Virus record (IMG/VR): IMGVR_UViG_3300023053_000237
Span: 1 to 35,972 of that record
Length of the DNA: 35,972 bases
Origin: a virus
Taxonomy: Duplodnaviria; Caudoviricetes
Direction: 5' to 3' (one strand)
The first letter of the stretch is position 1. Every line of letters begins with the position of its first letter. The notes below the pieces were generated by a model that saw nothing but the letters and a program-made list of their open reading frames with translations, was not told where the DNA came from and did not search any database. Shown here piece after piece: positions 7,945-35,972 of this stretch. The position numbers and the translations under genes are program-made.

Positions 7945-7946
7945 TT

Positions 7947-17282: not shown

Positions 17283-17348
17283 TTTCAACTCAATTTTATC
17301 AACAAAATTCAGCTCAATAATTTCTAAAAAGAATTGTTAGTCAGTGCG

Positions 17349-17397: not shown

Positions 17398-17468
17398 ACT
17401 TATTTTTTTCACGTTAAAAACCCCGCAATTTTGGCATATCAAAACGAACAAAAAAACAAAAAAAGCGT

Positions 17469-18443
17469 ATGCCAAGATTTGTATTAAATGATGAGAATGT
17501 TCGCAATTCTTATGGCTTTAAAATTCCCACAGCAGGTATTTATTTAGGAAGGTTTAATGCCAATCCTGTAATGCTTGACGGGCATTCCAATAGCAATGCA
17601 TCTGTAATTGGAAAATGGAAAGACCTTCAAGTAGATGGTGGCAATCTGTCTGCTGATACTGTTTTCAATCTTAAAGACCCAAATGCAAAAAGCATTTCTG
17701 ATAAGGTAGATGATGATTTTATAAAATCTGCCTCAATGGGTGTTTCCTTTAAAAAGGAAGACCTTAAAATGATTAACGGTGAGCTTACATTGACTAAATG
17801 CGAATTGTTAGAAGCTTCAATTGTTGCTATTCCAAGTAATGCCAATGCATTAAGATTATATGTAGATGGTGAAGTAATGAAAGAATTTGATGTACAGACA
17901 CTTTGCCTTTCTGTGGCTCAGAATGCGCCCGAAATCCTTCCAAAACAACAACAAACAAACGAAAATAAAATGGTTTTAAAACTTTCACAATTAGCATTTA
18001 TAGCTCTTGGTTTCTCGCAAAGCACAACAGAAGCGAGCGAAACCGAAATTAACACCGCTGTTTTAGCACTTCAAAACGCTAAAACCGAAGCTGAAAACAA
18101 GGCAAAAGCAGCCGAATTAAAACTTTCAGCTTTAGAAGATAAAGCAAAAGCAGAGCAATTGGCACTTTCTACAAAATTGGTAGATGATGCGATTGCATCA
18201 GGTCGTATCACCGCTGACAAAAAACAAGACTTCTTAGACCTCGCTGCCTCGAATTTCGATTTGGCAAAAACAACCATCGAATCTATTCCGGCTAAAAAAA
18301 ATCTGAGCACGGAAGTAAAAAATTCCAAAGTCGGTCTTGAGGCTATCACAAAAATGGAAGACTTCCAAAAATTAAGCTTAGAAGATCAGATTTCTTTAAA
18401 AGAGAATCACCCAGAAAATTACCAATTAATCTTAAAATCATAA
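17469..18443 (+). CDS. Prohead protease-scaffold; probable internal scaffold start at 17970
   Basis: NPVML.GH, IGKW, ASMG and LLEASIV.IPSN.NA protease motifs, then an Ala/Lys-rich coiled coil. Confidence 0.85.
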   Translation: MPRFVLNDENVRNSYGFKIPTAGIYLGRFNANPVMLDGHSNSNASVIGKWKDLQVDGGNLSADTVFNLKDPNAKSISDKVDDDFIKSASMGVSFKKEDLKMINGELTLTKCELLEASIVAIPSNANALRLYVDGEVMKEFDVQTLCLSVAQNAPEILPKQQQTNENKMVLKLSQLAFIALGFSQSTTEASETEINTAVLALQNAKTEAENKAKAAELKLSALEDKAKAEQLALSTKLVDDAIASGRITADKKQDFLDLAASNFDLAKTTIESIPAKKNLSTEVKNSKVGLEAITKMEDFQKLSLEDQISLKENHPENYQLILKS

Positions 18444-18449
18444 AATAAT

Positions 18450-19376
18450 ATGCCTACAAATTTTCCTGAGATTTGGCTTAAAAGAGTCATTGAGAACCTA
18501 TCCCGAAATGTTGCCGCAACCTTTTTAGAAGGTATTGCCGATTTGGATGTTGATGTAGTAACCATCAATGAGGGTAAACTGTCGGAGAAAAACAAAATGT
18601 ATGTCGCTGCAACCGACTTTGAAGTTGATGTATTAATCAATAATAATACTTATGAATTGGATGTACAAAACTATGACGATGATACCATCGAAATTACTTT
18701 GGACAAATACCAAACTTTGCCTACAGGTGTATCTGATGATGATACTACAGGTTCATCATATAGTAAAATTGACACTGTTACCAAAGCTCATAACAATGGG
18801 ATTTTAGCAAAAAAATATCGAAAAGCAATTCACTCTATTGCACCGTTGGAAGATACGGCAACAACTCCGGTTATTGAAGCAACGGGTTTAAGAGCTGGAG
18901 AAACCGATCCTTTAATGGATGGAACGAGAAAACGTCTTGTTTATGATGATCTTGTAAATGCTAAATCTAAAGCCGACAAAGCAGGTTTCAGTATTGAAGG
19001 CAGAAGATTGGTTTTGTGTGACAATCACTGGAATGATTTGCTTTTAGATCGTAAAAACTTCGGGGATCAGTTAGTTAATTATGCTCTTGGGAAACCAAAT
19101 CCTGTAATTGCCGGATGGGAATTACACCGCTATTCAGGTATGCCAATGTATGGAACAGATAAAAAGAAAAAAGCTTTTGATGCTGTTTCTGTAACAGGTG
19201 ATGTAGAAGCGTCTGTATTTTTCAACGTAGACAATATTGCAAAGAAAACAGGAGATACAAAACAATATTTCTCGTCAGCAGCTACAGCACCTCGTACACA
19301 ATCAAACGAACTTTCTTACAGACATTATTACGTTGTAACTCCATTCCAAAAAAAGAAAATCGGAGCAATCATTTAA
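18450..19376 (+). CDS. Major capsid protein
   Basis: 308 aa directly after the protease; PEIW N-terminus and GRRLVL...DLL motif. Confidence 0.75.
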   Translation: MPTNFPEIWLKRVIENLSRNVAATFLEGIADLDVDVVTINEGKLSEKNKMYVAATDFEVDVLINNNTYELDVQNYDDDTIEITLDKYQTLPTGVSDDDTTGSSYSKIDTVTKAHNNGILAKKYRKAIHSIAPLEDTATTPVIEATGLRAGETDPLMDGTRKRLVYDDLVNAKSKADKAGFSIEGRRLVLCDNHWNDLLLDRKNFGDQLVNYALGKPNPVIAGWELHRYSGMPMYGTDKKKKAFDAVSVTGDVEASVFFNVDNIAKKTGDTKQYFSSAATAPRTQSNELSYRHYYVVTPFQKKKIGAII

Positions 19377-19386
19377 TTAAATCATT

Positions 19387-19842
19387 ATGAAACTATCAGA
19401 AAAAGCCCTTCAAATCGCACTTACACAAAATGGCAAACAAGAAAATCCGCCCGGATCAAATTGGGGTGAACCTGTCAAAACTTACCTATCAAGTGTAGGA
19501 ATCGGTTTTCCTGCTGCATGGTGTATGGCATTTGTCTATTGGTGTTTTTCCGAAGCTTCAAAAAGTTTAAAAGTACCAAATACTGCAATAAAAACAGGAG
19601 GTGTTCTCGCCGCTTGGAATAAAGCAGATAAAAAAATAAAATCTTCAAACCCTGCCATCGGTTATGTGTTTATCATGGACTTTGGAAAGGGAAACGGTCA
19701 CACCGGTCTCGTTGAAAATTTCGACACCCAATACATATACACGATAGAAGGAAATACCAATGACGCCGGTAGCCGTGAAGGAATAAAAGTATTAAGAAAA
19801 AAACGCCTTAGAAGTACAATTAAAGGCTATTTAAACTACTGA
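19387..19842 (+). CDS. CHAP-domain endolysin
   Basis: AWCMAFVYW, GHTGLV and TIEGNTN catalytic motifs. Confidence 0.88.
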   Translation: MKLSEKALQIALTQNGKQENPPGSNWGEPVKTYLSSVGIGFPAAWCMAFVYWCFSEASKSLKVPNTAIKTGGVLAAWNKADKKIKSSNPAIGYVFIMDFGKGNGHTGLVENFDTQYIYTIEGNTNDAGSREGIKVLRKKRLRSTIKGYLNY

Positions 19843-19845
19843 AAA

Positions 19846-20346
19846 ATGAAAATTATTTCTGTCATAATTTGTTTTTTATTAATGTCATTGGCTTTGGTTT
19901 CCTGTATTAGCAGGAAGCCATCACAGCCGGTGGTTATTGAAAACACCAAAACAATTACAGAAGTCGTAAAAGATACGATCTATAAAATTGAAGCCGACAG
20001 CTCATTTTATAATGCGTACGTGAATTGTGTAAATGGCAAGCCTGTTTTAATCACCAATGAAATACCTGGTCTTGGCACAAAAACACTATTAAAACCAAAA
20101 CCCGGAAAATATTTAAATGTTCCTAAAGTCAACTTACAAAACGGTTTACTCACAGTTAATTGCGAAGCTGAAGCACAGGAACTGTTTAAACAATGGCGGG
20201 AAAAATACATAAACGAAAAATCCAAAGAATCTACAACGGTTTATGTTGAAAAGCCCTTAAAATGGTTTCAAGAGATACTCATGTACATCGGCATTCTCTT
20301 CTTGGGCTTTTGCGCCATCGCAATTATTCTAAAAATCAAAAATTAA
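19846..20346 (+). CDS. Putative unimolecular spanin
   Basis: N-terminal lipoprotein signal (LVSC) plus a C-terminal TM helix; follows the endolysin. Confidence 0.65.
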   Translation: MKIISVIICFLLMSLALVSCISRKPSQPVVIENTKTITEVVKDTIYKIEADSSFYNAYVNCVNGKPVLITNEIPGLGTKTLLKPKPGKYLNVPKVNLQNGLLTVNCEAEAQELFKQWREKYINEKSKESTTVYVEKPLKWFQEILMYIGILFLGFCAIAIILKIKN

Positions 20347-20363
20347 CACTAAAAATCAAAACA

Positions 20364-20834
20364 ATGGATCAAATTTTTAAAGACAACCCGAAGGTTGATA
20401 TTTACTATAAAACATCTGACGACACGCCTTTTTTCTCTAAAAATGCAGCTCAGAATCACGCCAAAACTTTAGAGCAAAAAAACATTGAAACAATTGTCAG
20501 AGGCTCTGTGAAAAATTCAGAAGAGAAAAATTTAAAAGTAGTGGTTGATACATCTACACTTGATATTAAAAGTATCGTGAATGATGTACTTACTGATAAA
20601 GGATTGTTAAACAATTCTGATGAACTAAAAACTAAAGTTCAGGAAGTTGTAGAAAAAGGAGCTGAAGGTTTGCAAGTTCAAAACGATGAGCAAAAATTAA
20701 CACCTAAACAACAATTACAGGCAGACTACGAGAAAAAATTTGGCGTCGTTCCAGCTGAGGAATTTACAAAAGCTCAACTTTCAGAAGCTATTGAAAAAGA
20801 TGAGCCATTGATTTCTGAACTTAAAATTGATTAA
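20364..20834 (+). CDS. Hypothetical virion-region protein
   Basis: ATG 20364 in an A-rich context; YYKTSD..PFF..NAA.NHAKTL motif. Confidence 0.65.
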   Translation: MDQIFKDNPKVDIYYKTSDDTPFFSKNAAQNHAKTLEQKNIETIVRGSVKNSEEKNLKVVVDTSTLDIKSIVNDVLTDKGLLNNSDELKTKVQEVVEKGAEGLQVQNDEQKLTPKQQLQADYEKKFGVVPAEEFTKAQLSEAIEKDEPLISELKID

Positions 20835-20836
20835 TA

Positions 20837-22018
20837 ATGAACGGAGTAAAATTTATCAGAGGCAATGGCGGTCTTTCCCGACAATTATCGGGCAGCGATC
20901 ACATTTCCGGAATGATCGTCTATGGTGAAAGTGATGTTGCTCAGGCATTAGTCCTTTCCATAGAAGATTTAGATAATAATGATATTACGGCAGTTTCAAA
21001 CCCTGTTTTACATTATCATGTATCTGAGTTTTTCAGAATCAATCCGGGTGCGAAATTATACATTCAGTCAGTTGAAGAATCAGACGGAGTTTTTGCGGAA
21101 GTAAAAACATTACAAAATTTTGCAGGTGGTGATTTACGTCAGGTTGCAGTTTGTGACTTTACAACACCCGTTTCAACACTTGTAGCAAGATTGGCAACTC
21201 TTAACCAAATTGCTGTCGATTTAGGGAATCTGAATGTTCCGTTGAGCTTTTTGTATTCTGTAAAGGTTGCCACATTGGATATTGCCTCGCTTCCAACCTT
21301 GCACACTCAAAATGCTGATCGTGTAACCGTAATTATTGGACAGGATGCCGGAGGACGTGGAAAATATTTATCAGAAACAAATCCTTCATTGACTTGTATT
21401 GGTGCTGCATTAGGTGCAGTTTCAAAAGCAATGGTGCATGAGTCGATTGCATGGGTTGAAAAACAAAACCTTGTATCAACAGCATATCCAAAGAGTTTAA
21501 CAGGAAGTGTAGAAATGGCGAGAGAAATGGATGTTACCGGATTGTGTGACGGTTCATTATACAGTGAATATACACCACAGCAATTACAGGCTATTTCAGA
21601 CAAAGGTTACGTTTTCGGAGTGAAATACACAGGAAATGCAGGAACATATTTTAACGATAGTTTCACAGCAACCACACTTGAAAGTGATTATGCTTATCTC
21701 GAAAACAACAGAACCATCGACAAAAGTATTCGTGGAATCTACAAAGCATTGCTTCCGAAAATTTCTGCACCTGCTTATGTTGATCCTGATACCGGGTATT
21801 TAGATGTTTCAACGGTCAGCTCATTGGAGGCTTTGTGTGATGATGTTTTAGATCAGATGCTCAGAGACGGTGAAATCAGTGGTTATAAAAACTATATAAA
21901 CCCCAATCAGCAAATTTTAAGAAACTCCAATCTTGAGGTGGTTACCAAATTAGTTCCAGTAGGTACACTAAGGGAAATTATAGTAAAAATCAGTTTAACC
22001 TTACAAATTAATCAATAA
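20837..22018 (+). CDS. Tail sheath protein (DUF2586-like)
   Basis: YHVSEFFR.NP, G.YFND, DYAYLENNRTIDK and C-terminal VPVG..REI.V motifs. Confidence 0.85.
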   Translation: MNGVKFIRGNGGLSRQLSGSDHISGMIVYGESDVAQALVLSIEDLDNNDITAVSNPVLHYHVSEFFRINPGAKLYIQSVEESDGVFAEVKTLQNFAGGDLRQVAVCDFTTPVSTLVARLATLNQIAVDLGNLNVPLSFLYSVKVATLDIASLPTLHTQNADRVTVIIGQDAGGRGKYLSETNPSLTCIGAALGAVSKAMVHESIAWVEKQNLVSTAYPKSLTGSVEMAREMDVTGLCDGSLYSEYTPQQLQAISDKGYVFGVKYTGNAGTYFNDSFTATTLESDYAYLENNRTIDKSIRGIYKALLPKISAPAYVDPDTGYLDVSTVSSLEALCDDVLDQMLRDGEISGYKNYINPNQQILRNSNLEVVTKLVPVGTLREIIVKISLTLQINQ

Positions 22019-22452
22019 TGGGTTTAGAATTAGAACCGCTAATTAATGGGCGGGAATACGGGTGGGCAGATATTATCGTAAACATCGGCGGTGTTCCTGT
22101 AACAGGAATCAGAGCCATAAAGTACGATGAAGAAATGGAGAAAGAAAATATCTACGGTGCGGGCAGAAATCCGGTAAGTCGTGGATATGGTAGAGTAAAA
22201 TCAACCGCTTCAATTACACTTCTTTCGGGTACTGTAATGGCTTTAAGAGCAAAAGCTCCAAAAGGTCAACTGTTCAGAATTGCACCTTTTTCAATTACTA
22301 TAAGTTATCAACCGGAAGCCGGGCCAATTGTGACACACATTTTAAAAAATGCTGAGTTCAAAAAATCAATATTCGACTGGAAAGAAGGTGATATGAGCAA
22401 AGAGATTGAATTGGAATTAATCATTTCTCATATCGTAGACAAATCAATTTAA
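22018..22452 (+). CDS. Tail tube protein
   Basis: 144 aa after the sheath; INGREY.WADI...IYGAG..P motif. Confidence 0.8.
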   Translation: MGLELEPLINGREYGWADIIVNIGGVPVTGIRAIKYDEEMEKENIYGAGRNPVSRGYGRVKSTASITLLSGTVMALRAKAPKGQLFRIAPFSITISYQPEAGPIVTHILKNAEFKKSIFDWKEGDMSKEIELELIISHIVDKSI

Positions 22453-22462
22453 TAAACAAAAA

Positions 22463-22810
22463 ATGGAAAAACAAGAAATTAACTTAGATAAAATCACTGA
22501 AAATATTTGCGGCTTAAATGATGCAGAACTTGCCGAATTAAAAGAAAAACATGGTTTCCTGATTGTAGGAACAATTTCGCAGGGAGAATCGCAATATCAT
22601 GCAATTTTTAAAGAACCTTCTTTTAAAACTTTAGAAGCTACAGGCTCTATTGCCAAAAACAGCGAGATTAAAGGCACTAAGGCACTTTATGACAACTGCA
22701 TCGTTAAAGCAGATCCGGAAATTGAAGAAAGAGATTTTCTGAAATTAAAATCTGTCGAATGTGTGGCAAACCACATGAATAGTTTCTCTACTTCCGTAAA
22801 AAACTTGTAA
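22463..22810 (+). CDS. Tail assembly chaperone (lambda gpG-like)
   Basis: Between tube and tape measure genes; ends in a slippery site. Confidence 0.75.
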   Translation: MEKQEINLDKITENICGLNDAELAELKEKHGFLIVGTISQGESQYHAIFKEPSFKTLEATGSIAKNSEIKGTKALYDNCIVKADPEIEERDFLKLKSVECVANHMNSFSTSVKNL

Positions 22811-23010
22811 GCTCGTTAAATGACGAGCATTCCGAAAACGAACGCTGGAAAGCAGATGCGTTGATACGTTCTAATTTTAGCGTTGATCCTGAAAAATTAC
22901 AATTAAGTGAATGGAGTAAATTAAACGCTCAGGCGCAATGGCTTGAGAAATGGAGGCTTGAAAATCAAGCGGAATTACTTTCTTCTTTGATTGAATCAGC
23001 TTTCGGCTAA
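22798..23010 (+). CDS. -1 frameshift extension of the tail chaperone (gpGT-like)
   Basis: A-AAA-AAC at 22798-22804, hairpin GCTCGT/ACGAGC at 22811-22828, and a -1 frame open to TAA 23010 with no ATG of its own. Confidence 0.8.
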   Translation, partial: KKLVSSLNDEHSENERWKADALIRSNFSVDPEKLQLSEWSKLNAQAQWLEKWRLENQAELLSSLIESAFG

Positions 23011-23165
23011 TTATCATTTTTGATTCTCTTAGCAAAATTCATTACAGCAATAAACATCCATACTGCTAAGCAAATTCCAAATAAAAGCGGATTGATTAAA
23101 GAAATCAATATGCTGATTAAAAACAGCCATCCTAAACGGGTGATCTTCTTACCAAAAATTATCAT
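23007..23165 (-). CDS. Small antisense membrane protein (52 aa), moron-like
   Basis: MIIFGKKITRLGWLFLISILISLINPLLFGICLAVWMFIAVMNFAKRIKNDN; fills the gap exactly; promoter-like GTTG-N20-TAACTTCG upstream. Confidence 0.65.
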   Translation of the reverse strand: MIIFGKKITRLGWLFLISILISLINPLLFGICLAVWMFIAVMNFAKRIKNDN

Positions 23166-23194
23166 TTCCAAAGACTTTTAAACGAAGTTACTCA

Positions 23195-25564
23195 ATGTCA
23201 ACAAATACTGCAACATATAACATCAATTTTTCTACCAACGGTGGACAAATTTTCCCACAAATCAATCTTGGTTTGGATGGTGTTAATGATGCGGTTGGTA
23301 GAACTACGAGGGCTTTTGGTGACTGTTATAAAGCTTTATTGTCTGTCAATCTTGCAGCTGAAGGTATCAATTCTTTGAAGCGTCAGATGGATGATCTGAT
23401 TGCACCAGGTGTAAAATTAAATACGAACATGGCTGAACTTTCAGCCATTACAGGAGTTACTGGTCAAGGGTTGAAAGATATCGAAATGGCTGCAAGAAGT
23501 ACAGCCAAAACATTTGGTACTGATGTTTCCCAAAATGTCGAGTCATACAAACTCATTTTATCACAATTAAGCCCTGAAATCGCTCAAAGCGCTGAAGCAA
23601 TGAAAATGATGGGTGAAAATTCAAACATCCTTTCAAAGCAGATGGGCGGTGATACTGTAGCTGCTACGAATGTTCTTACCACCTCGATGAATCAATTTGG
23701 CGTGAGCACAAAAGACCCAATCGCAGCGGCTAAGATCATGGCGGATATGATGAATGTAATGTCGGCAGGTGCGCAGGAAGGTTCTGCGGAATTGCCACAA
23801 ATTCAATCAGCTTTAGAACAGGTCGGGATGGTGGCAAAAACAACAGGTCTTTCATTTGTTGAAACCAACTCACAAATTCAGCTATTGGATAAAGCAGGAA
23901 AAAAAGGAAGTGAAGGCGGTATTGCTTTGAGAAACGTTTTGACAACTTTATCTGAAGGACGTTTTGCTTCTAAAGATGCAACCGCAGGATTAGCAGCTGC
24001 GGGAATCAGCACCGAGTATTTGGCAAATGCTTCTATACCATTAACAGACCGATTAAGAACGCTAAGAAAGATTCAAGGTGATACCGCATTAATGACTAAG
24101 GTTTTCGGAAAAGAAAACATGGCTGCGGGTATTGCAATGATTCAGGGAGCGGACGGAGCAGACGAAATGGCAAAAAAAATGGTTGATACCAATTCGGCAG
24201 CGGATCAGGCTACTGTTATTATGGGCACTTATCAGGAAAAAATGAATCGTGCGAAAGCAATTATTGACGATTATAAAATTTCCATATTTAATGCTACTGA
24301 AGCTTATCTACCATATATTCAACATACAATTACCGCCATTAATGGTGCTGCTGAGTTAGCCAATTCTATAACAGCTATAAAATCCGTTTTGGAAGCTTTT
24401 TTTCCGAGACTTTTTGCAAGTACAGCCGCTACAGAAGCTAATACAGTGGCAGAAGCCCAAAATACTACTACAAGAGGTGTTGGGGCTTTTGTGAACCGTA
24501 TTTATGCTTCTACAGTTACAGCAATTGGAAATGCTTATTTACGGGCAACTTTAGCAGTTAATGCATTTTCCTTATCAATTATGAATATCCCAGTTATCGG
24601 TTGGATTATCGCAGGTATTGTGGTTTTAATTGCTGCTATTAAACTATTGTGGGATCACTCAAGAAAGTTTCGTGAAATTCTCTTCGGAGTTTGGGAAGCC
24701 GGAAAAGCAGTCTTTTACAACATTGGTGTTTTCGTAACCCGTCTTTGGAATTTGGTGTTAAAGCCGATAGCTATGTTTATTTTCAATATTTACAAATCGA
24801 TTTTTCTTTCAGTATGGGAAGTTGTAAAGGTCGTTGTGAGTGGTATTGCAGATAATATTTCTTGGGTTTGGACTTCCATTATAAAACCTGTTGCTGAGTT
24901 TATTTACAACGCTTTTATTAATTCTTTTATCCAAATATGGAACACCGTTAAAACAGTTTTTAACTGGGTTGTCGGGATCATTTCCAAAGTTTGGAACTGG
25001 CTAAAAAATTTACTTGGAAGTTTTGGGGTGTGGATTGCGGAAACCATCATCAACCCTATTCGTGATGCGTTTAGTGGTGTTTGGAAATGGATTGTTGAAT
25101 TACTCGATAAAGTTATGAATAAACTGCAAGGTGTTTTAAAACCGATTAAGGATTTATGGAATAAGTTGTTTTCCGGTGAGGGGATGAAAAATGTATCTGT
25201 TGCATATAAGGAAGGTGCTTTAAAAGGAGGTGCAAGCTTTGATAAAGATCAGGCTGAAAAAAATAAAAAAGACGAGAAAACAGAAATTCCCAAAGACGAC
25301 AGTCACAAATCAATTTTCGATGTTGCAAAAGGTAGCCCGATGAAGCAAACAACATTCGGAGATGAAGCCGCAAAAAAGACTAAGAAGAAAAAAGACGGTG
25401 ACGGTGATTCAGGAAATAAAGTTCGTAACCTGAATATTACCAAACTCGTAGAAAACCTGAATATCTATAACCAAAACGGTACTACCATGAGTAAAGAATC
25501 TATCAAACAAATGGTACAGGAAGCATTATTAACAGCGTCTGCCGATTTTACACTTGCAGAATAA
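23195..25564 (+). CDS. Tail tape measure protein
   Basis: 789 aa, Ala-rich TP901-like core (GKKGSEGGIALRNVL) and Trp/Phe-periodic repeats. Confidence 0.92.
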   Translation: MSTNTATYNINFSTNGGQIFPQINLGLDGVNDAVGRTTRAFGDCYKALLSVNLAAEGINSLKRQMDDLIAPGVKLNTNMAELSAITGVTGQGLKDIEMAARSTAKTFGTDVSQNVESYKLILSQLSPEIAQSAEAMKMMGENSNILSKQMGGDTVAATNVLTTSMNQFGVSTKDPIAAAKIMADMMNVMSAGAQEGSAELPQIQSALEQVGMVAKTTGLSFVETNSQIQLLDKAGKKGSEGGIALRNVLTTLSEGRFASKDATAGLAAAGISTEYLANASIPLTDRLRTLRKIQGDTALMTKVFGKENMAAGIAMIQGADGADEMAKKMVDTNSAADQATVIMGTYQEKMNRAKAIIDDYKISIFNATEAYLPYIQHTITAINGAAELANSITAIKSVLEAFFPRLFASTAATEANTVAEAQNTTTRGVGAFVNRIYASTVTAIGNAYLRATLAVNAFSLSIMNIPVIGWIIAGIVVLIAAIKLLWDHSRKFREILFGVWEAGKAVFYNIGVFVTRLWNLVLKPIAMFIFNIYKSIFLSVWEVVKVVVSGIADNISWVWTSIIKPVAEFIYNAFINSFIQIWNTVKTVFNWVVGIISKVWNWLKNLLGSFGVWIAETIINPIRDAFSGVWKWIVELLDKVMNKLQGVLKPIKDLWNKLFSGEGMKNVSVAYKEGALKGGASFDKDQAEKNKKDEKTEIPKDDSHKSIFDVAKGSPMKQTTFGDEAAKKTKKKKDGDGDSGNKVRNLNITKLVENLNIYNQNGTTMSKESIKQMVQEALLTASADFTLAE

Positions 25565-26205
25565 TGGAAATTATAAAATACAGTTTTCCGAACACTGAAC
25601 AATTGGCAAGAGGTACAGCGGTTAATTTGGCTTTCCGTTACGGAATGCAGACGGCAAAACCTTTTAGTGTATCTGATACCATCGGAAATGAAGGAAACCC
25701 CGAATTCCAAAGCCTGAAAGATTTAGAAGGACAAAGTTGGTTAACATCATTATTTCTACGCTATACAGATGAGGTGAGTAAAATTATAACTGAGTTTGAA
25801 TTTATAGAATGTATCATAACAGTTACTCAGGAAAAAAACATTGTAAGCACCGCTTTGCAGGGAAGAAATGGAACAATTAAAGAATATATTTCTGATGGTG
25901 ATTATTCCATAACAGTTGATGCCGGGATAAACAATTATACTGAGGGTGATGATACAGGTGCAAGTCTGGAATATCCTATTGATAAAGTTAAAGAGCTTCA
26001 GAAAATTTTAAAACTTCCTGAAACTCTTGAGGTACAGTCAGACTTTTTAAAAGTATTTAAAATTGATTCTGCCGTAGTTAAAAGTTTTTATTTAACACAG
26101 GAAACCCACAGTAACAGACAATCTATACAAATGATTTTATTAAGTGATGAACCTTATGAAATCAGATTAAAAACAGAGGAAAAAGATGTTAAAGTTACGC
26201 AGTGA
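25564..26205 (+). CDS. Tail tube initiator-like protein (DUF6046-like)
   Basis: KNIV.T.LQGRNGTIKEYI..GDY motif directly after the tape measure gene. Confidence 0.7.
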   Translation: MEIIKYSFPNTEQLARGTAVNLAFRYGMQTAKPFSVSDTIGNEGNPEFQSLKDLEGQSWLTSLFLRYTDEVSKIITEFEFIECIITVTQEKNIVSTALQGRNGTIKEYISDGDYSITVDAGINNYTEGDDTGASLEYPIDKVKELQKILKLPETLEVQSDFLKVFKIDSAVVKSFYLTQETHSNRQSIQMILLSDEPYEIRLKTEEKDVKVTQ

Positions 26206-27166
26206 AATTACAATTGAAGGCGATAAAACTTGGCGGTTTAATGCTTTATCTGAATGCCAAATAATTGAAGATATTTCAAATCTTACAGATACGTGTGAGT
26301 TAAAACTCCCAAAAAAAATTAAGTGGGAGCAGGCTGTAACAAAAGACGGGAAACCACCGGTAAAAAGAGGTGATAAAATCACAGTTAAATTAGGATATGA
26401 CAAAGATTTACAAGTAAGATTTACCGGATATGTGCGCAGCGTAGATGCTAAAGTACCCATCACCATTAAATGTGAAGATGGAATGTTTTTACTCAAAACG
26501 CAAAAGGCAAAACCTAAAGCTTTTAAAAATGCTTCCCTAAATGATATTTTAAAACACCTTTTGGAAGGAACTGGGATAAAATTCGAGTTGATCGACAAAA
26601 CAATGATGGTAGGCAACTGGAGAATAACAAAATCAACCGTTGCTGAAGAATTGCAGGAACTGAAAGAAAAACAAATGCTTTCGTCTTATTTCCGAAGAAT
26701 TAATAATCAAAGTGTTTTGTATGTCGGTTTAGCTTATCCGGCAGACAACAGAAAAAAAGTAAAAATAATGTACGGTAAAAATCTCATCACAGAAGATTTT
26801 GAATACCGTGACAAAGCCGATATACGGGCTAAGGTTGAAGCGCAAACTTTCAACGCTAAACATAAAAAAACAGAGATTGAAATCGGTGATAAAGACGGTG
26901 ATGTTTTAAAAATAAGAATCGATGGTATTACCGAAAATGAATTAAAAAAATATGCTCAACAGGCATTAGACAGATACAAACAAAGCGGATTTAAAGGAAG
27001 CTTTGAAACTTTCGGACAGCCTGAAATATATAAATGTGATATGATAGATATTACAGCAAGTGACGGGAATAGCGGGGTTTATTTGGTTAAAAAGAATGAA
27101 ACCACTTTCGGAATGTCGGGGTACAGACAAAAAGTTGAATTAGGGCAACCGTTAAGTTTAAAATAA
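26186..27166 (+). CDS. Baseplate hub (P2 gpD / Mu gpP-like)
   Basis: LTDTC.L.LP, GD.ITVKLGY, F.GYV, I.CED and G.F.TFG.P motifs. Confidence 0.8.
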   Translation: MLKLRSEITIEGDKTWRFNALSECQIIEDISNLTDTCELKLPKKIKWEQAVTKDGKPPVKRGDKITVKLGYDKDLQVRFTGYVRSVDAKVPITIKCEDGMFLLKTQKAKPKAFKNASLNDILKHLLEGTGIKFELIDKTMMVGNWRITKSTVAEELQELKEKQMLSSYFRRINNQSVLYVGLAYPADNRKKVKIMYGKNLITEDFEYRDKADIRAKVEAQTFNAKHKKTEIEIGDKDGDVLKIRIDGITENELKKYAQQALDRYKQSGFKGSFETFGQPEIYKCDMIDITASDGNSGVYLVKKNETTFGMSGYRQKVELGQPLSLK

Positions 27167-27639
27167 TGAAAGAAATCATTCAAAAATTAGCGAGTAACGG
27201 TGACGAGATTTACGCAAAAATTTGCGAGGTTATTTCTGTTGATGAAGATAACAAAACGGCTGATTTAAAACCTTTAGACGGAAGTTCAGATATTTTTGAT
27301 GCTTACCTGGTAACGGATGATGAAAACGGAAGCTTGTATTTAGAGCCGAAAATAGGATCATTGGTTTGTGTGGTTTTTGTTACCAAAACAATAGCGGTGG
27401 TTGTAAATCCTTCCGAGCTTTTAAAGTTCAGGCTTAAAATATCAGGTGTAGAAATGAGCATTGATAAAGATGGTTTTTTGCTAAAAAAAGAAAATGAAAC
27501 GCTAAAAAAATTAATGGCTGATTTTATAACGGCTTGCCGAAATATGGTATTTCAAACCAACTCAGGTATTACGATAGAATTATTGACAGATGTTGAGTTT
27601 AAAGACCTTCAAACACGATTTAATAACTTTTTAAAATAG
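27166..27639 (+). CDS. Baseplate spike (gpV-like)
   Basis: OB-fold-like start with P.IGS.V.V motif; follows the hub gene. Confidence 0.65.
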   Translation: MKEIIQKLASNGDEIYAKICEVISVDEDNKTADLKPLDGSSDIFDAYLVTDDENGSLYLEPKIGSLVCVVFVTKTIAVVVNPSELLKFRLKISGVEMSIDKDGFLLKKENETLKKLMADFITACRNMVFQTNSGITIELLTDVEFKDLQTRFNNFLK

Positions 27640-27646
27640 TTTTAAA

Positions 27647-27850
27647 ATGCCTTTAAACGAAACTCAGATAAAAGCAAAAATTAAAGCAAAATTATTACTT
27701 GCACGAAATAATACGACTTCAGCAGATCAATCTTTAGATAATTTGATAGACGCAATTTATGAAGTTGTTATAGCAATATTAACAGATGCAGTTGTCACCG
27801 GAATTTGTGGCGGTGCGGGAAGTCCTTTAACGCTCGGAAAAATTACATAA
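27647..27850 (+). CDS. Small baseplate-region protein
   Basis: 67 aa, coupled to neighbouring genes. Confidence 0.6.
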   Translation: MPLNETQIKAKIKAKLLLARNNTTSADQSLDNLIDAIYEVVIAILTDAVVTGICGGAGSPLTLGKIT

Positions 27851-28134
27851 TGAATGATTTACTACTTACACAGGATTATGATCTCGAAATTAAAAACGGG
27901 GATTTTGTTATAGGCGATAGTCAATCGCAATCCGTAGAGCTTATGCTAATGAGTAAACAGGGCGAATATAAATTAAACCCTGAAGCCGGGTGCAATATTT
28001 TATCCGCAAAAAACGGAGTAATCGGAAGATTATTAGATAGGGAAATAAGAATACAATTAGAAGCGGACGGCTTTCAGTTGGAAAATTTAACAATAACAGA
28101 AAACGGAATCGATGTCTCAGGTACTTATATATAA
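27850..28134 (+). CDS. Baseplate gp25/gpW-like protein
   Basis: DL.I.NGDFVIG.S...GEYK.NP..G motif; start at ATG 27850. Confidence 0.65.
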   Translation: MNDLLLTQDYDLEIKNGDFVIGDSQSQSVELMLMSKQGEYKLNPEAGCNILSAKNGVIGRLLDREIRIQLEADGFQLENLTITENGIDVSGTYI

Positions 28135-28423
28135 GGTTTATGAAAATCAAAGCTTTTTAGATATTTCAAATGCTATCTACGGGCATGTGATGTATGCTTT
28201 TGAATTGGCAATATTAAACGGTTTCTCCCCTTCGGATTCAATTCCTGCAGGAAAGGAAATTTTTTATAATTCCGAAAATGAAAATAATGTGTTGGTACTA
28301 AAAAGCTTGGTGTCAAATAATAGCATCCCTGCAACAGCACTAACAACAGCTCAAAATGAACAGATACCAACACCTAAAGGAATTGGAGTTATGAAAATTG
28401 ATAACACTTTTAAAATTGATTAA
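28112..28423 (+). CDS. LysM/tail X-like baseplate protein
   Basis: V.ENQSFLDIS...YG......ELA.LNG pattern. Confidence 0.6.
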   Translation: MSQVLIYKVYENQSFLDISNAIYGHVMYAFELAILNGFSPSDSIPAGKEIFYNSENENNVLVLKSLVSNNSIPATALTTAQNEQIPTPKGIGVMKIDNTFKID

Positions 28424-28761
28424 TGGAAAAATTATTATTAGAGAATTTCGGCGTTTTGATCGCTGGAATTGCATCCGGTGTTGGTGGTTGGGTTTTCGGA
28501 AGAAAGAAAGCAGGTGCAGAACTTGAAAGCAACCAGATTGAAAATGCTAAGAAGTTACTTGAATACTACAAAGAATTAGTAGATGATTTAGGCAACCGTT
28601 TAGATCGTGCTATTGAAAACCTGCAAAAATCTGAAATTGAGAAACAAGAAGTCATTAAAAAATTCTCTGAAGCAACTGAGCAAATTCATGTTTTAGAGAA
28701 GAAAGTAGAAAACTTAACCGAAGAGTTGCAAAAGTATAAGCAGCTAAACAGAAAAGCATAA
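28423..28761 (+). CDS. N-terminal TM plus coiled-coil protein (holin-like candidate)
   Basis: Gly-rich hydrophobic segment, then RKK and a coiled coil. Confidence 0.5.
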   Translation: MEKLLLENFGVLIAGIASGVGGWVFGRKKAGAELESNQIENAKKLLEYYKELVDDLGNRLDRAIENLQKSEIEKQEVIKKFSEATEQIHVLEKKVENLTEELQKYKQLNRKA

Positions 28762-28764
28762 AAA

Positions 28765-29625
28765 ATGAACAAAACATTTGAGCAATTTTTAGCCGAACTA
28801 TTATCAGAAAAGGCAAAAAAAACGACTTTAAACAGTTTGGATAGTACTTCTAAAACTTCCGCGTGGAGACAGTTATTTGAAGTGCTTGCGTGGGTTCTTT
28901 ACAATTTTGCATTGTCGGCACTTTTACACCTTCAGGAGATCAGAGAATTAATTGCCAATCAAAAAGTTTTCAATTTGCGTAGATATCGCTTTGAAGCTTT
29001 AAGATTTCAATACGGCTTTGATCTCGTGGAGGACAGCGACCAATTTAAAACCACATTTTTAAATAATGGTGTTGAAGTCGTTGCAAGTGATGAAGATATT
29101 GAAAATTCAAAAATTGTAAAGTATGCAGCCTGTAACCGTGTTATTGACGGACGTGCAAAAATTGTGATGAAAATAGCGCCTGAAGATTTAGACGGAATTT
29201 TTGACGCTGATGTGATGAACGCATTTTCTAAATATATGGAAGAAATATCGCCCGCAGGCGACCATCTTACAATTATCAATTATTTGCCTGATATGCTAAG
29301 GTTTGTTTTCAAAATCAAATACAATCCAATGGTATTATTGGCAAATGGTATGAATATCATCACTGCAAGTTATCCAGTTACCGAAGCAATTGAAAACTTT
29401 TTAAAAAACCTTCCTTTTAATGGGGAATTGAGTGTACAAAGATTAGAAGCTGCAATATTGGCGGTTGATGGTGTAGAAGATTTGCAAACTTTAGCAATTG
29501 AATCAAAATGGATTGACCCTGCACAAAATGGATATGGTTTATACCAGCCTGTTAATATGTCAGTTATTCCCGCATCTGGAAGGTTTAAAGTAGAAGATTT
29601 TACAGGACTTCAATTTATTGTATGA
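28765..29625 (+). CDS. Baseplate wedge protein (gpJ-like)
   Basis: STSKTSAWR, L.FQYG, LPFNG.L and VDGV.D motifs. Confidence 0.7.
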   Translation: MNKTFEQFLAELLSEKAKKTTLNSLDSTSKTSAWRQLFEVLAWVLYNFALSALLHLQEIRELIANQKVFNLRRYRFEALRFQYGFDLVEDSDQFKTTFLNNGVEVVASDEDIENSKIVKYAACNRVIDGRAKIVMKIAPEDLDGIFDADVMNAFSKYMEEISPAGDHLTIINYLPDMLRFVFKIKYNPMVLLANGMNIITASYPVTEAIENFLKNLPFNGELSVQRLEAAILAVDGVEDLQTLAIESKWIDPAQNGYGLYQPVNMSVIPASGRFKVEDFTGLQFIV

Positions 29626-30110
29626 TGGATAAGCTTTTTGATATTAATTTCAAAAAATTGGCGCTTGAATGGTTGCCGACTTTTAACAGAATGCCTGTTT
29701 TCTCAGCAATTGTATTGGTGATGGTTGCACCTGTTGAATACATGTATAATGAGTTTTTGAAGGCTCGAAAACAAAATTTAATTAGGATAAACACAACCTG
29801 TCAAAAGTTTTCAATGCAAAAGCGTTTGAATGATTATTTCGACCCCGTTAATAGACGTATTGAAATTGTGAAGGCTGTTCTTTTTGATGGTGTTTATCTC
29901 TACACTGAAGCGGAAGACGACCAATGGCGCACAAAAACTCAATGGCTTTATGTTGACAGTTTGCCAATATACCTGTACACGGAAGCGGAACTCAATAGTG
30001 AATTTGATTTCATTGTGAAAGTTCCTACAGGATTAAATGAACTGCAATTAAAAGCAGAAATCGAATATTACATGTTACAATCTAAAAATTACAGAATCGA
30101 ATATATATGA
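29622..30110 (+). CDS. Baseplate wedge protein (gpI-like)
   Basis: LP...R, LND.FD and DFIV.VP motifs; follows the gpJ-like gene. Confidence 0.6.
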   Translation: MMDKLFDINFKKLALEWLPTFNRMPVFSAIVLVMVAPVEYMYNEFLKARKQNLIRINTTCQKFSMQKRLNDYFDPVNRRIEIVKAVLFDGVYLYTEAEDDQWRTKTQWLYVDSLPIYLYTEAELNSEFDFIVKVPTGLNELQLKAEIEYYMLQSKNYRIEYI

Positions 30111-30961
30111 GACTTAATTTTAAATTTATGCAAACGGACGGCGTTCCGTTGACCGCTGATCTTATGGATCAGATACAGGAAGCTTACGCAATTTTTAATG
30201 TTTTGGGAAGCATAGCCGGAAACTTAACAATTCTTTCCGGTTGTGAAATCAACGGTACTTCTGTTAGTTCCGGAATAGTGGTAATTGACAATGATGTTCT
30301 TTTTTTTGAAGGTGGAACGATAAATAATACCGTTTACATTAATCAGGAAAACATTCAAAAAGTATTCAAAAATCAGGTTTCAAAAGTATTAATTGAGAAA
30401 AAAACGGTCAAATTTGGCAACGCTTCAAATACATATAATTGGGCTGATTTTGTGAGATTAAAGACTTTAAAAGAAATTCAGGTTTTGGTCGAAAACAGCG
30501 TTACTCAGCAACAGTTCGCAGTCGCTTTAGCTGATATTGAACTGTTAAAACTTAAAACAGCTCCTGTATTCAATGGAGGTGTAGTTTGGGCTTTTGGAAG
30601 ACCTGCCAATGAGATTCCTACAGGATGGAAAGAAGCGATTGATATTCGTGGAAAAACAATCGTAGGACATGATCCCAATGACCCGATGTTTTCAACTTTG
30701 GGCGCAAATGTTGGTTCTAAAACACATCAACTGACAGCTAATGAGTTGCCACAACTTTCGGGAACAATGTACACAATAGCACCTGCCAATGATTACGGTT
30801 CAGGAATAACAAGTGTTCAAAATCAATCAACAGCTTCGATCGGTGGTAGTTCTGTAGCATATATGCACAAAAATTTTAGAATAACTTTTGGTGCTAATCA
30901 GCCTCACAACATCGTTCAGTCTTCGCACATTGCTCACTATATCGAACCAAACTTCCAATAA
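30107..30961 (+). CDS. Tail fibre/collar-domain protein
   Basis: IPTGW...DIRGK.IVG...G...G...HQLT.NELP and PHNIVQ collar motifs. Confidence 0.75.
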   Translation: MRLNFKFMQTDGVPLTADLMDQIQEAYAIFNVLGSIAGNLTILSGCEINGTSVSSGIVVIDNDVLFFEGGTINNTVYINQENIQKVFKNQVSKVLIEKKTVKFGNASNTYNWADFVRLKTLKEIQVLVENSVTQQQFAVALADIELLKLKTAPVFNGGVVWAFGRPANEIPTGWKEAIDIRGKTIVGHDPNDPMFSTLGANVGSKTHQLTANELPQLSGTMYTIAPANDYGSGITSVQNQSTASIGGSSVAYMHKNFRITFGANQPHNIVQSSHIAHYIEPNFQ

Positions 30962-30965
30962 TATT

Positions 30966-32936
30966 ATGTCACAATTACGAACTACAGTTTATCAATATTT
31001 TCAAACAGGCGACATTCCAACTGAAGCACAATTCCAATTTTCTTGGAACTCAGTTTGGTTCAAGGATGAAAAATTTACAATCTCTGATACAACAGGGCTT
31101 GAAAATGCCCTGCAAAATAAACTTGATACAACGCATTTAACGGATGAAAACGCACACCAAAATACGCTTGCAAAACTTAACGCATCTAATCTAAACGATG
31201 AACAAAAAGAAGCTTGGAAAAGTGCTTTAGGTGTTGGAACGATTCCGGACAATATAGCATTTGTTGATGCCGGTGTAGTTCCGGAAGTCTATAACAAAGA
31301 TCAGATTCATGCAATGACAATGTTGATTGCCGATTATACAATTGCCGGAAAAGTCAGAGCCGATAAAATTGAAGCTTTAGGGCTTACAGATTTGATTCAA
31401 GTGGATGAAAATACTTTAACTGATTTTGTTGCTAATGCTGATAATTACGAATTTCAGAAAAATGATTTCGTAGCTATTCCAGATGTTAACGGAAATTATT
31501 CCTTGTTTATTTTCAAAGGAGGCAATAAAAATGTTGTAGGAAGCTATTTAGCAACGGGCTTAACAAACATTACAATTTCGATGGTTGAGGGTTTACAAAC
31601 TGCTTTGAATGGTAAGGTTGATAAACCAATATCACAAGGAAGTTATTTTGCACAAATTGACCAAAACGGTAGTTATATTTGGCGAAATATCGTTCCGACA
31701 GCTAATAATCTTCTTGTTTGGAATGGTTCTGCTTTTGAGGCTTCTAATTGGTTCAGAAATCCTGCAAATGGACGTATAGGTGTTGGAACTACCACCCCAA
31801 CCGAACAATTACACTTGATGGCTCGTGCGAGAATGTCAGCTTTGGTTCTTGACGAAAATACGGAAATTCTTCCCGGACAAATTACGAGATCAGGAAATAG
31901 ATTTTCTGGTACAAATCCTTCCGGCATAAAAAAGGGCTTCCAGTATAACGATTATGAAGATTTTTTAAGCACATTCTCCGGGTTTTCGCAAGCTCAAAAT
32001 CTTACAATTTCGCAGTTATTGAACGGGGGCGCTGGAAGTGGTGGCAATATGAGTGTAAATTTAATTTCACCTCCAATAGTGCAGAATCAATATGATTCGA
32101 TTGAATACATAATGTTACAAGGTGCTAATCTTAACCTTTCAGCAGTTAGCCGAAAAGTAGAAATTTTAGAAGCTGATAAAACGACGGTAAAAGCTATAAT
32201 TCCCGACAATCAAGTTCAAACTTATGATAACGGATTATCATTAGTTTTCTACTATAATTTTCATCAGTTTACGGAAGGGCAGTATTTTATCCGATTAACG
32301 AGCGGAAGTAAAGTTTTCATTACTTCTTTGGATTTAAATATTGTCCCACAAATTACTAACGTGAATTTAAATAATTTGACATGGGATATAATTTACGATC
32401 AATCTATTACCCCTAACTCAAATGATATTGCTATCGGAGATAATTTCCGAATTACACTTCCCGACATGGACACTGTACTGCCTGTGATAAATTTGAAAAG
32501 TTCAGAAATATTTGATGTAGGTGAAGATTTTTATATAGAGTTCAAAATCCAATTATCGGCATACGGTTCAAATGCGTCAAATGCGTCAAAAACATTTATT
32601 GGAATCGGCTACAGTTCAACGCAAAACAGTAATATCAATAATACATTAGCAAGTACATCATATTATACGACTAATAGAACCTATAATTACGGAAACGGGG
32701 ACACCTATTTGGCAAATGCACAGTCCGCACCTTTGGAATACAACGTTAAAATCATCAAAACAGGAAACTTGTTCCGAACCATCATTGGAAACTTAAATAA
32801 ATCTGACATTTTAACCAATAATGAAGGTTATAGCTTCTTTGCGAACTTGATTGCGTATACAACACAAAACGGTATTTTCCCTGGTCAAAATGTAATAGTA
32901 CAATGTAAAATTTTAAAAGCTTTTAAATTTAACTAA
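30966..32936 (+). CDS. Tail fibre / receptor-binding protein candidate
   Basis: FQTGD.PTEAQF N-terminus, I..V.GLQTAL.GKVD, GRIGVGTTTP and a beta-rich C-terminus; start at ATG 30966. Confidence 0.7.
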   Translation: MSQLRTTVYQYFQTGDIPTEAQFQFSWNSVWFKDEKFTISDTTGLENALQNKLDTTHLTDENAHQNTLAKLNASNLNDEQKEAWKSALGVGTIPDNIAFVDAGVVPEVYNKDQIHAMTMLIADYTIAGKVRADKIEALGLTDLIQVDENTLTDFVANADNYEFQKNDFVAIPDVNGNYSLFIFKGGNKNVVGSYLATGLTNITISMVEGLQTALNGKVDKPISQGSYFAQIDQNGSYIWRNIVPTANNLLVWNGSAFEASNWFRNPANGRIGVGTTTPTEQLHLMARARMSALVLDENTEILPGQITRSGNRFSGTNPSGIKKGFQYNDYEDFLSTFSGFSQAQNLTISQLLNGGAGSGGNMSVNLISPPIVQNQYDSIEYIMLQGANLNLSAVSRKVEILEADKTTVKAIIPDNQVQTYDNGLSLVFYYNFHQFTEGQYFIRLTSGSKVFITSLDLNIVPQITNVNLNNLTWDIIYDQSITPNSNDIAIGDNFRITLPDMDTVLPVINLKSSEIFDVGEDFYIEFKIQLSAYGSNASNASKTFIGIGYSSTQNSNINNTLASTSYYTTNRTYNYGNGDTYLANAQSAPLEYNVKIIKTGNLFRTIIGNLNKSDILTNNEGYSFFANLIAYTTQNGIFPGQNVIVQCKILKAFKFN

Positions 32937-34228: not shown

Positions 34229-34280
34229 TTTTTTGGACGTTTTAATTTATTTTTCTTGACCTTTTAATTTGCCGTTTATA
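34229..34280. repeat. Prophage right end with tandem transposase-binding-like sites
   Basis: TTTTTTGGACGTTTTAATTT (34229-34248) and TTTTCTTGACCTTTTAATTT (34251-34270), 17/20 identical and 22 bp apart; terminus GCCGTTTATA. Confidence 0.75.
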
Positions 34281-35531
34281 CTTTGAGATACAACCCAACC
34301 GGTTTTTACTATGTGCGTAATATGCGCCCGTTGTGAATTGCTTTCATTTTTGAGTATCTTTGAGATACAACCCAACGGGATTAAATGCCCTTTGTTACTA
34401 AATAACGTTGTGAATTGCTTTCATTTTTGAGTATCTTTGAGATACAACCCAACTAAGCGCCCAGGCGAAGAACCCACCAACATGTTGTGAATTGCTTTCA
34501 TTTTTGAGTATCTTTGAGATACAACCCAACTAGTCTTTCCATTCCAGGATTAGAGTAATAGTTGTGAATTGCTTTCATTTTTGAGTATCTTTGAGATACA
34601 ACCCAACAGAATATAATTTATTAGAAAAACCAAAAGGGTTGTGAATTGCTTTCATTTTTGAGTATCTTTGAGATACAACCCAACAAGATTATAAAGAAAT
34701 GGTTGAGTGGATGCGTTGTGAATTGCTTTCATTTTTGAGTATCTTTGAGATACAACCCAACCGTGTGTCGTAATTGTTCTTTCTGTTGCCTGTTGTGAAT
34801 TGCTTTCATTTTTGAGTATCTTTGAGATACAACCCAACATACTAAGAATATGACACATTTAAGCGTTAGTTGTGAATTGCTTTCATTTTTGAGTATCTTT
34901 GAGATACAACCCAACATAATGCATGGTATTATGTTCAACAGGTAGGTTGTGAATTGCTTTCATTTTTGAGTATCTTTGAGATACAACCCAACATACTAAA
35001 AATGAGCAGATTACCAGAAATAGTTGTGAATTGCTTTCATTTTTGAGTATCTTTGAGATACAACCCAACGGGAGGTACGTCTACAGGTCATAGCCGATAG
35101 TTGTGAATTGCTTTCATTTTTGAGTATCTTTGAGATACAACCCAACCATGAAAACATTATTACAAATATTAAACGAGTTGTGAATTGCTTTCATTTTTGA
35201 GTATCTTTGAGATACAACCCAACCGAAATATACGACTTAGATAAGTTCTACGCGTTGTGAATTGCTTTCATTTTTGAGTATCTTTGAGATACAACCCAAC
35301 ACAATGTTGCCAATAAACAAAAGGTAACGCGTTGTGAATTGCTTTCATTTTTGAGTATCTTTGAGATACAACCCAACGCAGGAAGTACCGACGACACCGC
35401 GGAAAGTGTTGTGAATTGCTTTCATTTTTGAGTATCTTTGAGATACAACCCAACAATATTCATTATATACCATATTATAAGCTAGTTGTGAATTGCTTTC
35501 ATTTTTGAGTATCTTTGAGATACAACCCAAC
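34281..35531 (+). CRISPR. Type II-C-like CRISPR array: one truncated repeat (34281-34299), 16 full 47-bp repeats, 16 spacers of 30 bp
   Basis: GTTGTGAATTGCTTTCATTTTTGAGTATCTTTGAGATACAACCCAAC with a 77-bp period from 34330 to 35531; adjacent to cas2/cas1 with no csn2 or cas4 in between. Subtype and strand are inferred; cas9 is not in the window. Confidence 0.97.
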
Positions 35532-35536: not shown

Positions 35537-35569
35537 AAAACAATCTACTGATTTTCAGTAGATTGTTTT
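35537..35569. terminator. Bidirectional terminator-like hairpin between the array and cas2
   Basis: Perfect 15-bp stem AAAACAATCTACTGA-ttt-TCAGTAGATTGTTTT. Confidence 0.75.

Positions 35570-35588: not shown

Positions 35589-35972
<384 letters not shown>

Follow-up and report, generated by a model that had tools for sequence, protein, structure and literature searches.

Mu-like phages in CRISPR and other multicopy repeats of flavobacteria, and a candidate HNH-HTH target selector

Introduction

Phage Mu has TG...CA ends, makes 5-bp target duplications and chooses its targets nearly at random. The stretch of DNA analysed here (the window) is a whole virus record of 35,972 bases in which the first gene downstream of the start encodes a MuA-like transposase, and its phage sequence stops inside a host CRISPR repeat. 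The locus raises the question of whether such a phage came to lie there by chance or belongs to a lineage aimed at CRISPR repeats, as a first-pass annotation of the sequence had proposed in case the finding recurred, and, if it is aimed, by which of its proteins.

Results

The prophage and its junctions with the array

The features of the window used below are the following.

159..2195, + strand: MuA-like DDE transposase (A), 678 aa; phrog_310, E 7e-51; 41% to the Peternella_1 transposase
2204..3067, + strand: MuB/TnsC-like AAA+ ATPase (B), 287 aa; phrog_296, E 1e-44; AAA_22, TniB
3064..3495, + strand: candidate target selector P0001, 143 aa; I-HmuI-like predicted HNH fold (residues 2-94), variable C-terminal HTH (96-143)
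3497..4126, + strand: second small ATPase; phrog_6891
11653..32936, both strands: Mu-type head, packaging, lysis and contractile-tail genes
34229..34270, unstranded: two 20-bp sub-terminal repeats, 17/20 alike
34271..34280, + strand: right tip of the prophage, TA-3' end; boundary from the duplications in 24 two-sided sites
34281..34284, + strand: target-site duplication CTTT, 4 bp; identical 4 bp before the left end in both L063 and L064
34281..34299, + strand: 3' part (positions 29-47) of the split type II-C repeat; exact match
34300..35531, + strand: Cas-proximal array part, 16 spacers and 16 intact repeats; no spacer matches the prophage
35537..35569, unstranded: perfect 15-bp inverted repeat directly after the last repeat, a likely terminator
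35589..35972, - strand: host cas2; PF09827, E 4e-15

The assignment to the Mu-like transposable phages held, on the basis of Mu-type A and B (the rve match of A, E 1e-4, is below the Pfam cut-off), of three Mu-type structural families above cut-off (PF06074, portal; PF04233, gpF; PF07030, gp36) and of the target duplication described below. The second small ATPase is present in targeting and non-targeting kin alike. The early region is mosaic: B of the window is 95% alike to that of L090 and 54% to that of L032, and the second ATPase is 94% alike to that of L032 and 62% to that of L090. Genes for a PAPS-reductase-like protein and an NA37 (YejK-type) nucleoid protein, at 5651-6496 and 6895-7944, are patchy in relatives.

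At the right end, the phage sequence stops at 34280 and the next 19 nt are identical to repeat positions 29-47, as the first-pass annotation had read them; they are followed by 16 spacers of 30 nt each and 16 identical 47-nt repeats, so that the normal spacer and intact repeats that it described were also found, and then by cas2. The two end repeats that it had pointed out (34229-34248 and 34251-34270) are conserved in the right ends of relatives, and in L063 a similar motif is found 15 bp in from the left end; the end repeats are putative transposase binding sites.

The missing left end was supplied by L063, a record found by a metagenome scan with the left-end motif, whose positions 5688-8027 are 100% identical to window 1-2340. 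This record runs from a degenerate terminal repeat through 42 full repeats and repeat positions 1-32 into the phage's left end, 1687 bp before window position 1, and an identical left junction is present in L064. Further repeats had thus been correctly expected upstream, and an array of 59 repeats is interrupted by 35,967 bp of phage, the element length obtained from L063 and the window combined; the earlier estimate was a split by more than 34 kb. A duplicated CTTTG(AG) had also been predicted; a duplication was present, but it comprised 4 bp (CTTT, repeat positions 29-32) and not 5-6, and the left end opened with TAGGGGCATG instead of the predicted TRTAAACGGC. As L063 completes the CTTT duplication, the junction is the product of true transposition. 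A degenerate terminal repeat, which the first reading had already discounted, a deletion and a misassembly were all ruled out by the matching 4 bp on both flanks (L063/L064) and by isolate genomes. Among the contigs of four sequencing runs none spanned the junction, so that these runs had no bearing on it. Cas1-mediated integration was ruled out too, as there is no full-repeat duplication and the insertion positions lie inside the repeat. All 24 rebuilt two-sided sites have elements with TA...TA ends and a 4-bp duplication, which are traits of the whole wider family and not of the targeting group.

Within L063:735-4000, one spacer of the left part of the array occurs twice, and another matches window 13245-13260 exactly over 16 nt, not enough for targeting.

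Recurrence in CRISPR arrays

When the insertion sites of relatives were collected, the recurrence on which the first-pass proposal depended was found: there are 11 distinct insertions in type II-C arrays, the window element and ten relatives in arrays of other flavobacteria, a set in which L051 has a flank of 15 nt only and five members are known from end sequence without early genes. Among the eight loci of a GTDB scan (transposase identity 66-79%), four are inside II-C repeats (G006, G007, G010 and G011), three in REP-like elements (G008, G009 and G012) and one in a cassette-type repeat (G013). Metagenome matches numbered 15, of which nine were without downstream end sequence and were dropped; the six true phage left ends all sit in II-C repeats, five of them distinct. 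In a more distant clade (45%), G133 carries its element in a different II-C repeat and in the opposite orientation. Other queries were less productive: the left-end pattern gave no matches in viral_contigs, seven of the eight matches of a right-end 18-mer were due to chance, and a tail-fibre query did not locate right ends.

The duplications fall at repeat positions 7-10, 16-19, 21-24, 29-32 (twice), 30-33, 37-40 (twice) and 39-42. As the positions and the hosts differ, the insertion events were independent, and one ancestral, vertically inherited insertion is ruled out. Ten of the 11 insertions share one orientation (p 0.012) and ten are in repeats, as opposed to spacers (p 0.02). The largest target array, with 85 repeats in a 3.4-Mb genome, makes up about 0.2% of it. 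A weak phase of 10-10.5 bp is apparent in the positions (post hoc p 0.03); neither a motif common to all targets nor a fixed distance within arrays was found.

One of the 11 array insertions is a mini-element of 1,089 bp (G365:C45:186755-187843; L041, L070), which retains the two phage ends and part of a 146-aa ORF. Its left junction is 4 bp into a spacer, its right junction is at repeat position 2 and there is no duplication; therefore, it probably arose by adjacent deletion or by recombination of two copies. At L055:3700-4000, next to a prophage left end, the repeats of the array differ in the middle from copy to copy.

Non-CRISPR repeats as targets

CRISPR repeats are not the only targets of the lineage. 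Close relatives are found in other multicopy host repeats, for which the labels REP-like and cassette-type were coined here from copy number and palindromy and to which no paper that we found could be tied. The proposal of a CRISPR-repeat-targeting phage therefore stands as far as the recurrent array insertions go, but not as an exclusive preference, as REP-like and cassette-type sites are used despite uninterrupted arrays: G009 (about 29 repeats) and G012 (3 repeats) each have an uninterrupted II-C array plus cas1, so their REP-like sites are no mere fallback. Exclusive CRISPR targeting, and the use of REP-like elements only where an array is lacking, were both rejected on these two genomes.

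The target of G012 has at least 50 copies in its own genome and that of G013 has 39; flank matches, self included, numbered six in G603 and five each in G112 and G436. Four REP-like junctions (G009, G012, G603 and L168) lie at most 4 bp after an AGCCCGRC motif, in one orientation. Because counting copies by pooled BLAST was too insensitive for diverged REP-like and cassette-type repeats, profiles made from copies other than those at junctions were used instead; these missed G009 and L095 and matched G088 weakly.

L039 and the G013 contigs C11, C14, C21 and C28 contain arrays of single genes resembling integron cassettes, separated by a conserved 190-bp imperfect inverted repeat with at least 39 copies; related families occur in G088, G112, G436 and Flavobacterium-type genomes. 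Extra right-end motifs belonging to this phage family, with coding-like flanks and no second transposase match were seen at G013:C21:7185, G013:C14:4615 and G009:C2:71299. Two of the three are among cassette-type arrays, and they are remnants or further mini-elements.

Presence of the HNH-HTH gene and type of site

The gene for P0001 occupies the place between B and the second ATPase throughout the 14 core-clade rows, as well as in L105-L107, L115 and L098; it is missing from the 22 ordinary-site elements and from Peternella_1. This open reading frame (3064-3495) is the likely determinant of targeting and had not figured in the first-pass annotation.

Of 401 Weeksellaceae genomes, 35 matched a transposase profile, at 37 places in total; the 29 places that fall outside the core clade were examined and 26 left junctions resolved. 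Unresolved junctions were left out (L109, L114, L117, G434, G655, G1062, G835, G1080, L001, L004 and L005), as were G418 and a split match in G1098, and G860, the same site as L168, was counted once. All sites are those of surviving prophages. Not one of the 22 resolved prophages without the gene lay in an array or in a repeat matched by the profiles of four non-CRISPR families, and several of them interrupt long open frames, whereas carriers lay in repeats in 13 of 18 cases by strict tests (6 CRISPR, 7 profile-confirmed other repeats) and in 16 of 18 by eye. With related phages treated as independent, although the rows are not, Fisher's test gave p 7e-7 for 13/18 against 0/22 and p 0.005 for CRISPR repeats only (6/18 against 0/22); on a quick transposase tree the carriers group into three or four clusters, so these values overstate independence. 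The background of the profiles is 0.26% of 176,511 bp of host DNA. By eye or by a weak profile match, G009, L095 and G088 were placed in repeats, and the two carriers matching no repeat class are L096, with a coding-like right flank, and G224, with a 56-nt flank. Three further carrier contigs classed as linear (L162, L165 and L170) have short flanks that matched no repeat class and may be packaged ends or misses.

For a prospective set, with the prediction fixed beforehand, 401 genomes of G603's genus provided 12 with a match and, from these, 10 elements, one of which repeated L168. Five others were carriers, and the three resolved were all in one dispersed palindromic repeat family, recognised as such after the fact, with junctions 30-60 bp into it; the family starts with YAACTAGTATAT, a word present in 4-6 copies per genome against 0-3 for controls, and has like copies elsewhere. 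Of the four non-carriers three were resolved, none in a repeat family and all in ordinary sites. No element of this set was in a CRISPR array. Two non-carriers of the wider collection, L119 and L120 (G342 and G380), occupy the same host region with flanks 80% alike and different junctions, and L127 and L128 are two prophage copies in one genome (G160).

Multicopy non-coding repeats of the host harbour the lineage much more frequently than chance would predict. As the sister elements lacking the gene are in ordinary sites, survivor bias alone does not produce this pattern, and it is very likely that the lineage already targets repeats before selection acts.

Predicted fold of P0001 and its active site

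The predicted model of P0001 (pLDDT 87) matches the HNH homing endonuclease I-HmuI (PDB 1u3e) over residues 2-94 (Foldseek E 2.5e-3), with a Z of 11.6 and an rmsd of 2.3 over 88 residues, the sole Z above 8 among 48,161 chains. The HTH is C-terminal of this HNH part; its match to PDB 2lvs (E 0.04-0.45), an archaeal CRISPR-repeat-binding protein, was put down to generic HTH likeness and given no weight.

In the alignment, the VDH of I-HmuI corresponds to AKH in P0001, and across the family the Asp before the His gives way to Lys, Asn, Ile or Arg. Core-clade proteins retain His74 and Asn95; the outer members L095, L105 and L106 no longer have the His. In a D-H...N active site the Asp binds metal and the His is catalytic. 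With these roles, the replaced Asp and the variable His indicate that nuclease activity is probably gone, and the model points to P0001 as probably a nuclease-dead derivative of a homing endonuclease. Were the protein still to nick the repeat, the nick or a repair intermediate could attract transposition, and the His74 and Asn95 retained in the core clade are compatible with this; however, the position of the Asp is occupied by four other residues, and the three carriers that have lost the His still sit in repeats. Of the explanations considered in this work, nicking was given the slightest probability.

Co-folding of B with P0001 scored 0.37 against 0.00 for the best of three controls, the runs agreeing in at least 19% of contacts with a partner pLDDT of at least 70. 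Weak passes of this level are reached by 18 of 157 solved pairs and 2 of 215 mismatched pairs, and the prediction gives weak support to binding of B by P0001.

Variation of the HTH with the target

Among the eight core phages with a known target, pairs sharing a target were more alike in the HTH by 23 points (label-permutation p 0.005) and in the HNH part by 9 points (p 0.035), and showed no excess likeness in A (p 0.85), B (p 0.17) or the ATPase (p 0.45). For L034 and L037 the likeness is 97% in A, 98% in B and 99% in the ATPase but 40% in the HTH; the former is in a REP-like element and the latter in a variant CRISPR repeat. A helix, RNAIFNLRKK, is common to the four phages in the window-type repeat, the transposases of which fall in two subclades. 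In a nearest-neighbour test over 14 elements the scores were 10 for the HNH part, 9 for the ATPase, 8 for the HTH, 7 for A and 5 for B; the HTH was not singled out there, and therefore its signal is clear only inside the core clade.

Another explanation of the repeat bias is that A and B themselves prefer distorted DNA, such as hairpins, mismatches or slipped repeats, the HNH-HTH gene being a linked regulator or a passenger. MuA likes mismatched DNA, every target class is repeated or palindromic, and the sites of G008 and G013 fold strongly (z -3.9 and -4.7). Against it, five of the six rebuilt CRISPR sites are no better folded than shuffles (z -1.1 to 0.1) while three ordinary sites do fold strongly (z -3.3 to -6.0), symmetric hairpins would not give one orientation, and the near-identical A and B of L034 and L037 go with different targets. 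General hairpin strength is thus not supported as the targeting signal by site folding, as it leaves the CRISPR sites unexplained, and a preference for distorted DNA is considered unlikely as the source of the bias.

Consequences for the host array

No match at 24/30 or better was found between the 58 spacers of the window and its own prophage, and at the same threshold no self-targeting spacer was found in G006 (5 scored), G007 (52) or G133. In G010 (L257/L258), spacers 15 and 16 of the 69 to the right of the prophage, on the cas side, match the resident prophage at 29/30. The 3' flanks of their protospacers, AATCCA and GATTCA, are similar to each other and hint at the PAM of the Cas9 of G010, the frame of which is open but short (1280 aa against 1417-1456). 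As these spacers match a resident prophage, the lysogen needs either the spacers silenced or Cas9 inhibited. The suggestion of the first-pass annotation that insertion acts as counter-defence therefore fits one of the five arrays examined, but not that of the window itself, and a gene-sparing site is the more likely general benefit.

The protospacer flanks, the degenerate repeat at the left and the hairpin at 35537-35569 suggest that the array is transcribed from left to right, which would place the prophage upstream of the newest spacers. Every repeat (for example, window 34330-34376) contains TATCTTTG at positions 26-33, which resembles the Bacteroidota promoter motif, TAnnTTTG, and the repeats may hold embedded promoters.

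Such a motif, beginning at repeat position 26, and the weak phase of the positions would suit recruitment of the transpososome by a host complex at the repeat, whether Cas1-Cas2, Cas9, a nucleoid protein or RNA polymerase on a promoter embedded in the repeat, with a phage protein as a bridge at most. This was judged quite unlikely, as at least three unrelated repeat classes are used, no cas1 match was found in the draft genomes of G013 and G112, and the variable part of P0001 is a DNA-binding HTH.

Still less probable is insertion at random, as in Mu, followed by selection for insertions that are harmless or silence anti-phage spacers. In its favour, G010 has two self-matching cas-side spacers beside an open 1280-aa cas9, and the distantly related Hankyphage, once induced, inserts all over the genome according to the accessible part of bioRxiv 2024.08.07.606950. 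However, the 22 sisters that lack the gene persist at ordinary sites in hosts of the same family, in some cases within long open frames; four of the five arrays have no self-matching spacer; the cas1, cas2 and cas9 frames are open beside the split arrays of G007, G010 and G365; and neither the orientation nor the bias for repeats over spacers is explained.

Discussion

The reading that we prefer, with a probability of roughly 0.6, is that the repeat bias is due to a target selector encoded by the small gene after B, ORF 3064-3495 being the TnsD-like selector of a transposable phage; the evidence for all its mechanistic steps is correlative. The HTH of P0001, helped by the DNA-binding surface of the HNH part, would recognise a motif of a single host repeat family: the II-C repeat for the window-type variant, and REP-like or cassette-type repeats for other variants. 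P0001 would then load the AAA+ ATPase B on one side of the motif, and B would bring in transposase A for insertion at a variable distance, with one orientation and scattered positions as the outcome. This would be the TnsD-TnsC-TnsB logic built from different parts. The 10-10.5-bp phase would fit steps of a B polymer, but it is weak and not established. Lysogeny would benefit from a gene-sparing site, and in some hosts there could be a bonus, as the newer spacers would be cut off from the upstream promoter.

A broader proposal, to which we give even odds, is that targeting is modular and swappable and uses neither TniQ/TnsD nor CRISPR effectors: a nuclease-dead homing endonuclease with an exchangeable HTH would aim MuA/MuB and 36 kb of DNA at a chosen repeat family, and its CRISPR-reading variant would park the phage in, and sometimes silence, the very array that targets phage.

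Textbook transposable phages integrate nearly at random, and a lineage landing in repeats overturns that view for a widespread group of Bacteroidota phages, with sister lineages serving as built-in random controls. It also provides a third independent route to CRISPR-array insertion, after the integrase phage and the Tn7-like elements. Should the selector be the 143-aa HNH-HTH protein, it would represent a new class of transposon targeting factor, arisen by domestication of a homing endonuclease, and would offer a very compact means of directing the DDE integration of large cargo. L034 and L037 form a natural near-isogenic pair that makes the question of the selector directly testable.

Within the literature covered, to which most subscription journals do not belong (cf. 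the accessible parts of PMC10367356, PMC7761591, PMC8776804 and PMC11656645), no report was found of CRISPR-repeat-targeting or target-selective transposable phages, or of an HNH-derived selector. Targeting of CRISPR repeats as such is already known, from the accessible text of the sources cited below, for an integrase phage and for Tn7-like transposons.

Among phages, the window element shares with Mu the A/B transposition logic, terminal binding repeats and the portal, gpF and gp36 families, and differs in the TA...TA ends and 4-bp duplications of its family. Unlike the near-random target choice of Mu-like phages, carriers of the HNH-HTH gene were in repeats in 13-16 of 18 cases against 0 of 22 for non-carriers, counting prophage sites only. 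The Bacteroidota transposable phages (Winoviridae Peternella_1, Alisviridae, Hankyphage p00 and fF4) have the A-B-ATPase early region and Mu-type structural genes in common with it, and their transposases are 41% and 27-29% identical, the former value being that of Peternella_1, a cultured Winogradskyella phage that begins with TA and is the nearest named phage. They are described as non-site-specific or as inserting throughout the genome (for Hankyphage, in the available part of bioRxiv 2024.08.07.606950), and Peternella_1, unlike the window phage, has no HNH-HTH gene between B and ATPase. Winoviridae are defined, in the part of PMC8776804 accessible, by ten core structural genes in a shared phylogeny, and the window phage was compared with them by its transposase alone.

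With I-HmuI-type HNH homing endonucleases (PDB 1u3e), P0001 shares the predicted fold of residues 2-94 and the C-terminal HTH. It differs from them in the replaced metal-binding Asp, the variable catalytic His, the fixed gene position after B and an HTH that diverges with the target class.

The Streptococcus phage PhiAP1.1 reportedly integrates by site-specific recombination. No recombinase family matched the window proteins, and repeat-like words in the phage reach at most 12 nt, with no attP copy of the repeat. PhiAP1.1 is likewise a prophage interrupting a CRISPR repeat that can silence spacers, as described, with reference to Varble 2021, in the accessible part of PMC11837452; the lineage studied here differs in DDE transposition, a 4-bp duplication, many positions and the use of non-CRISPR repeats too.

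The array-targeting Tn7-like transposons of cyanobacteria are, in the accessible text of Chacon Machado and Peters (2025, PMC11837452), minimal transposons with 18 of 22 copies in arrays, in which a TnsD/TniQ selector directs insertion at a fixed distance into a spacer and leaves the repeat intact. As far as that text goes, they resemble the phage lineage in combining a DDE transposase, an AAA+ ATPase and a DNA-binding selector (a candidate one here), in their single orientation in arrays, in having some copies elsewhere and in carrying no Cas genes. No TniQ or TnsA family was found among the 48 window proteins. Set against the fixed-distance spacer insertion described there, ten of 11 array insertions of the phages are in repeats, at positions 7 to 44, and the repeat is split, now here and now there, by a 36-kb phage, with an HNH-HTH protein as its candidate selector.
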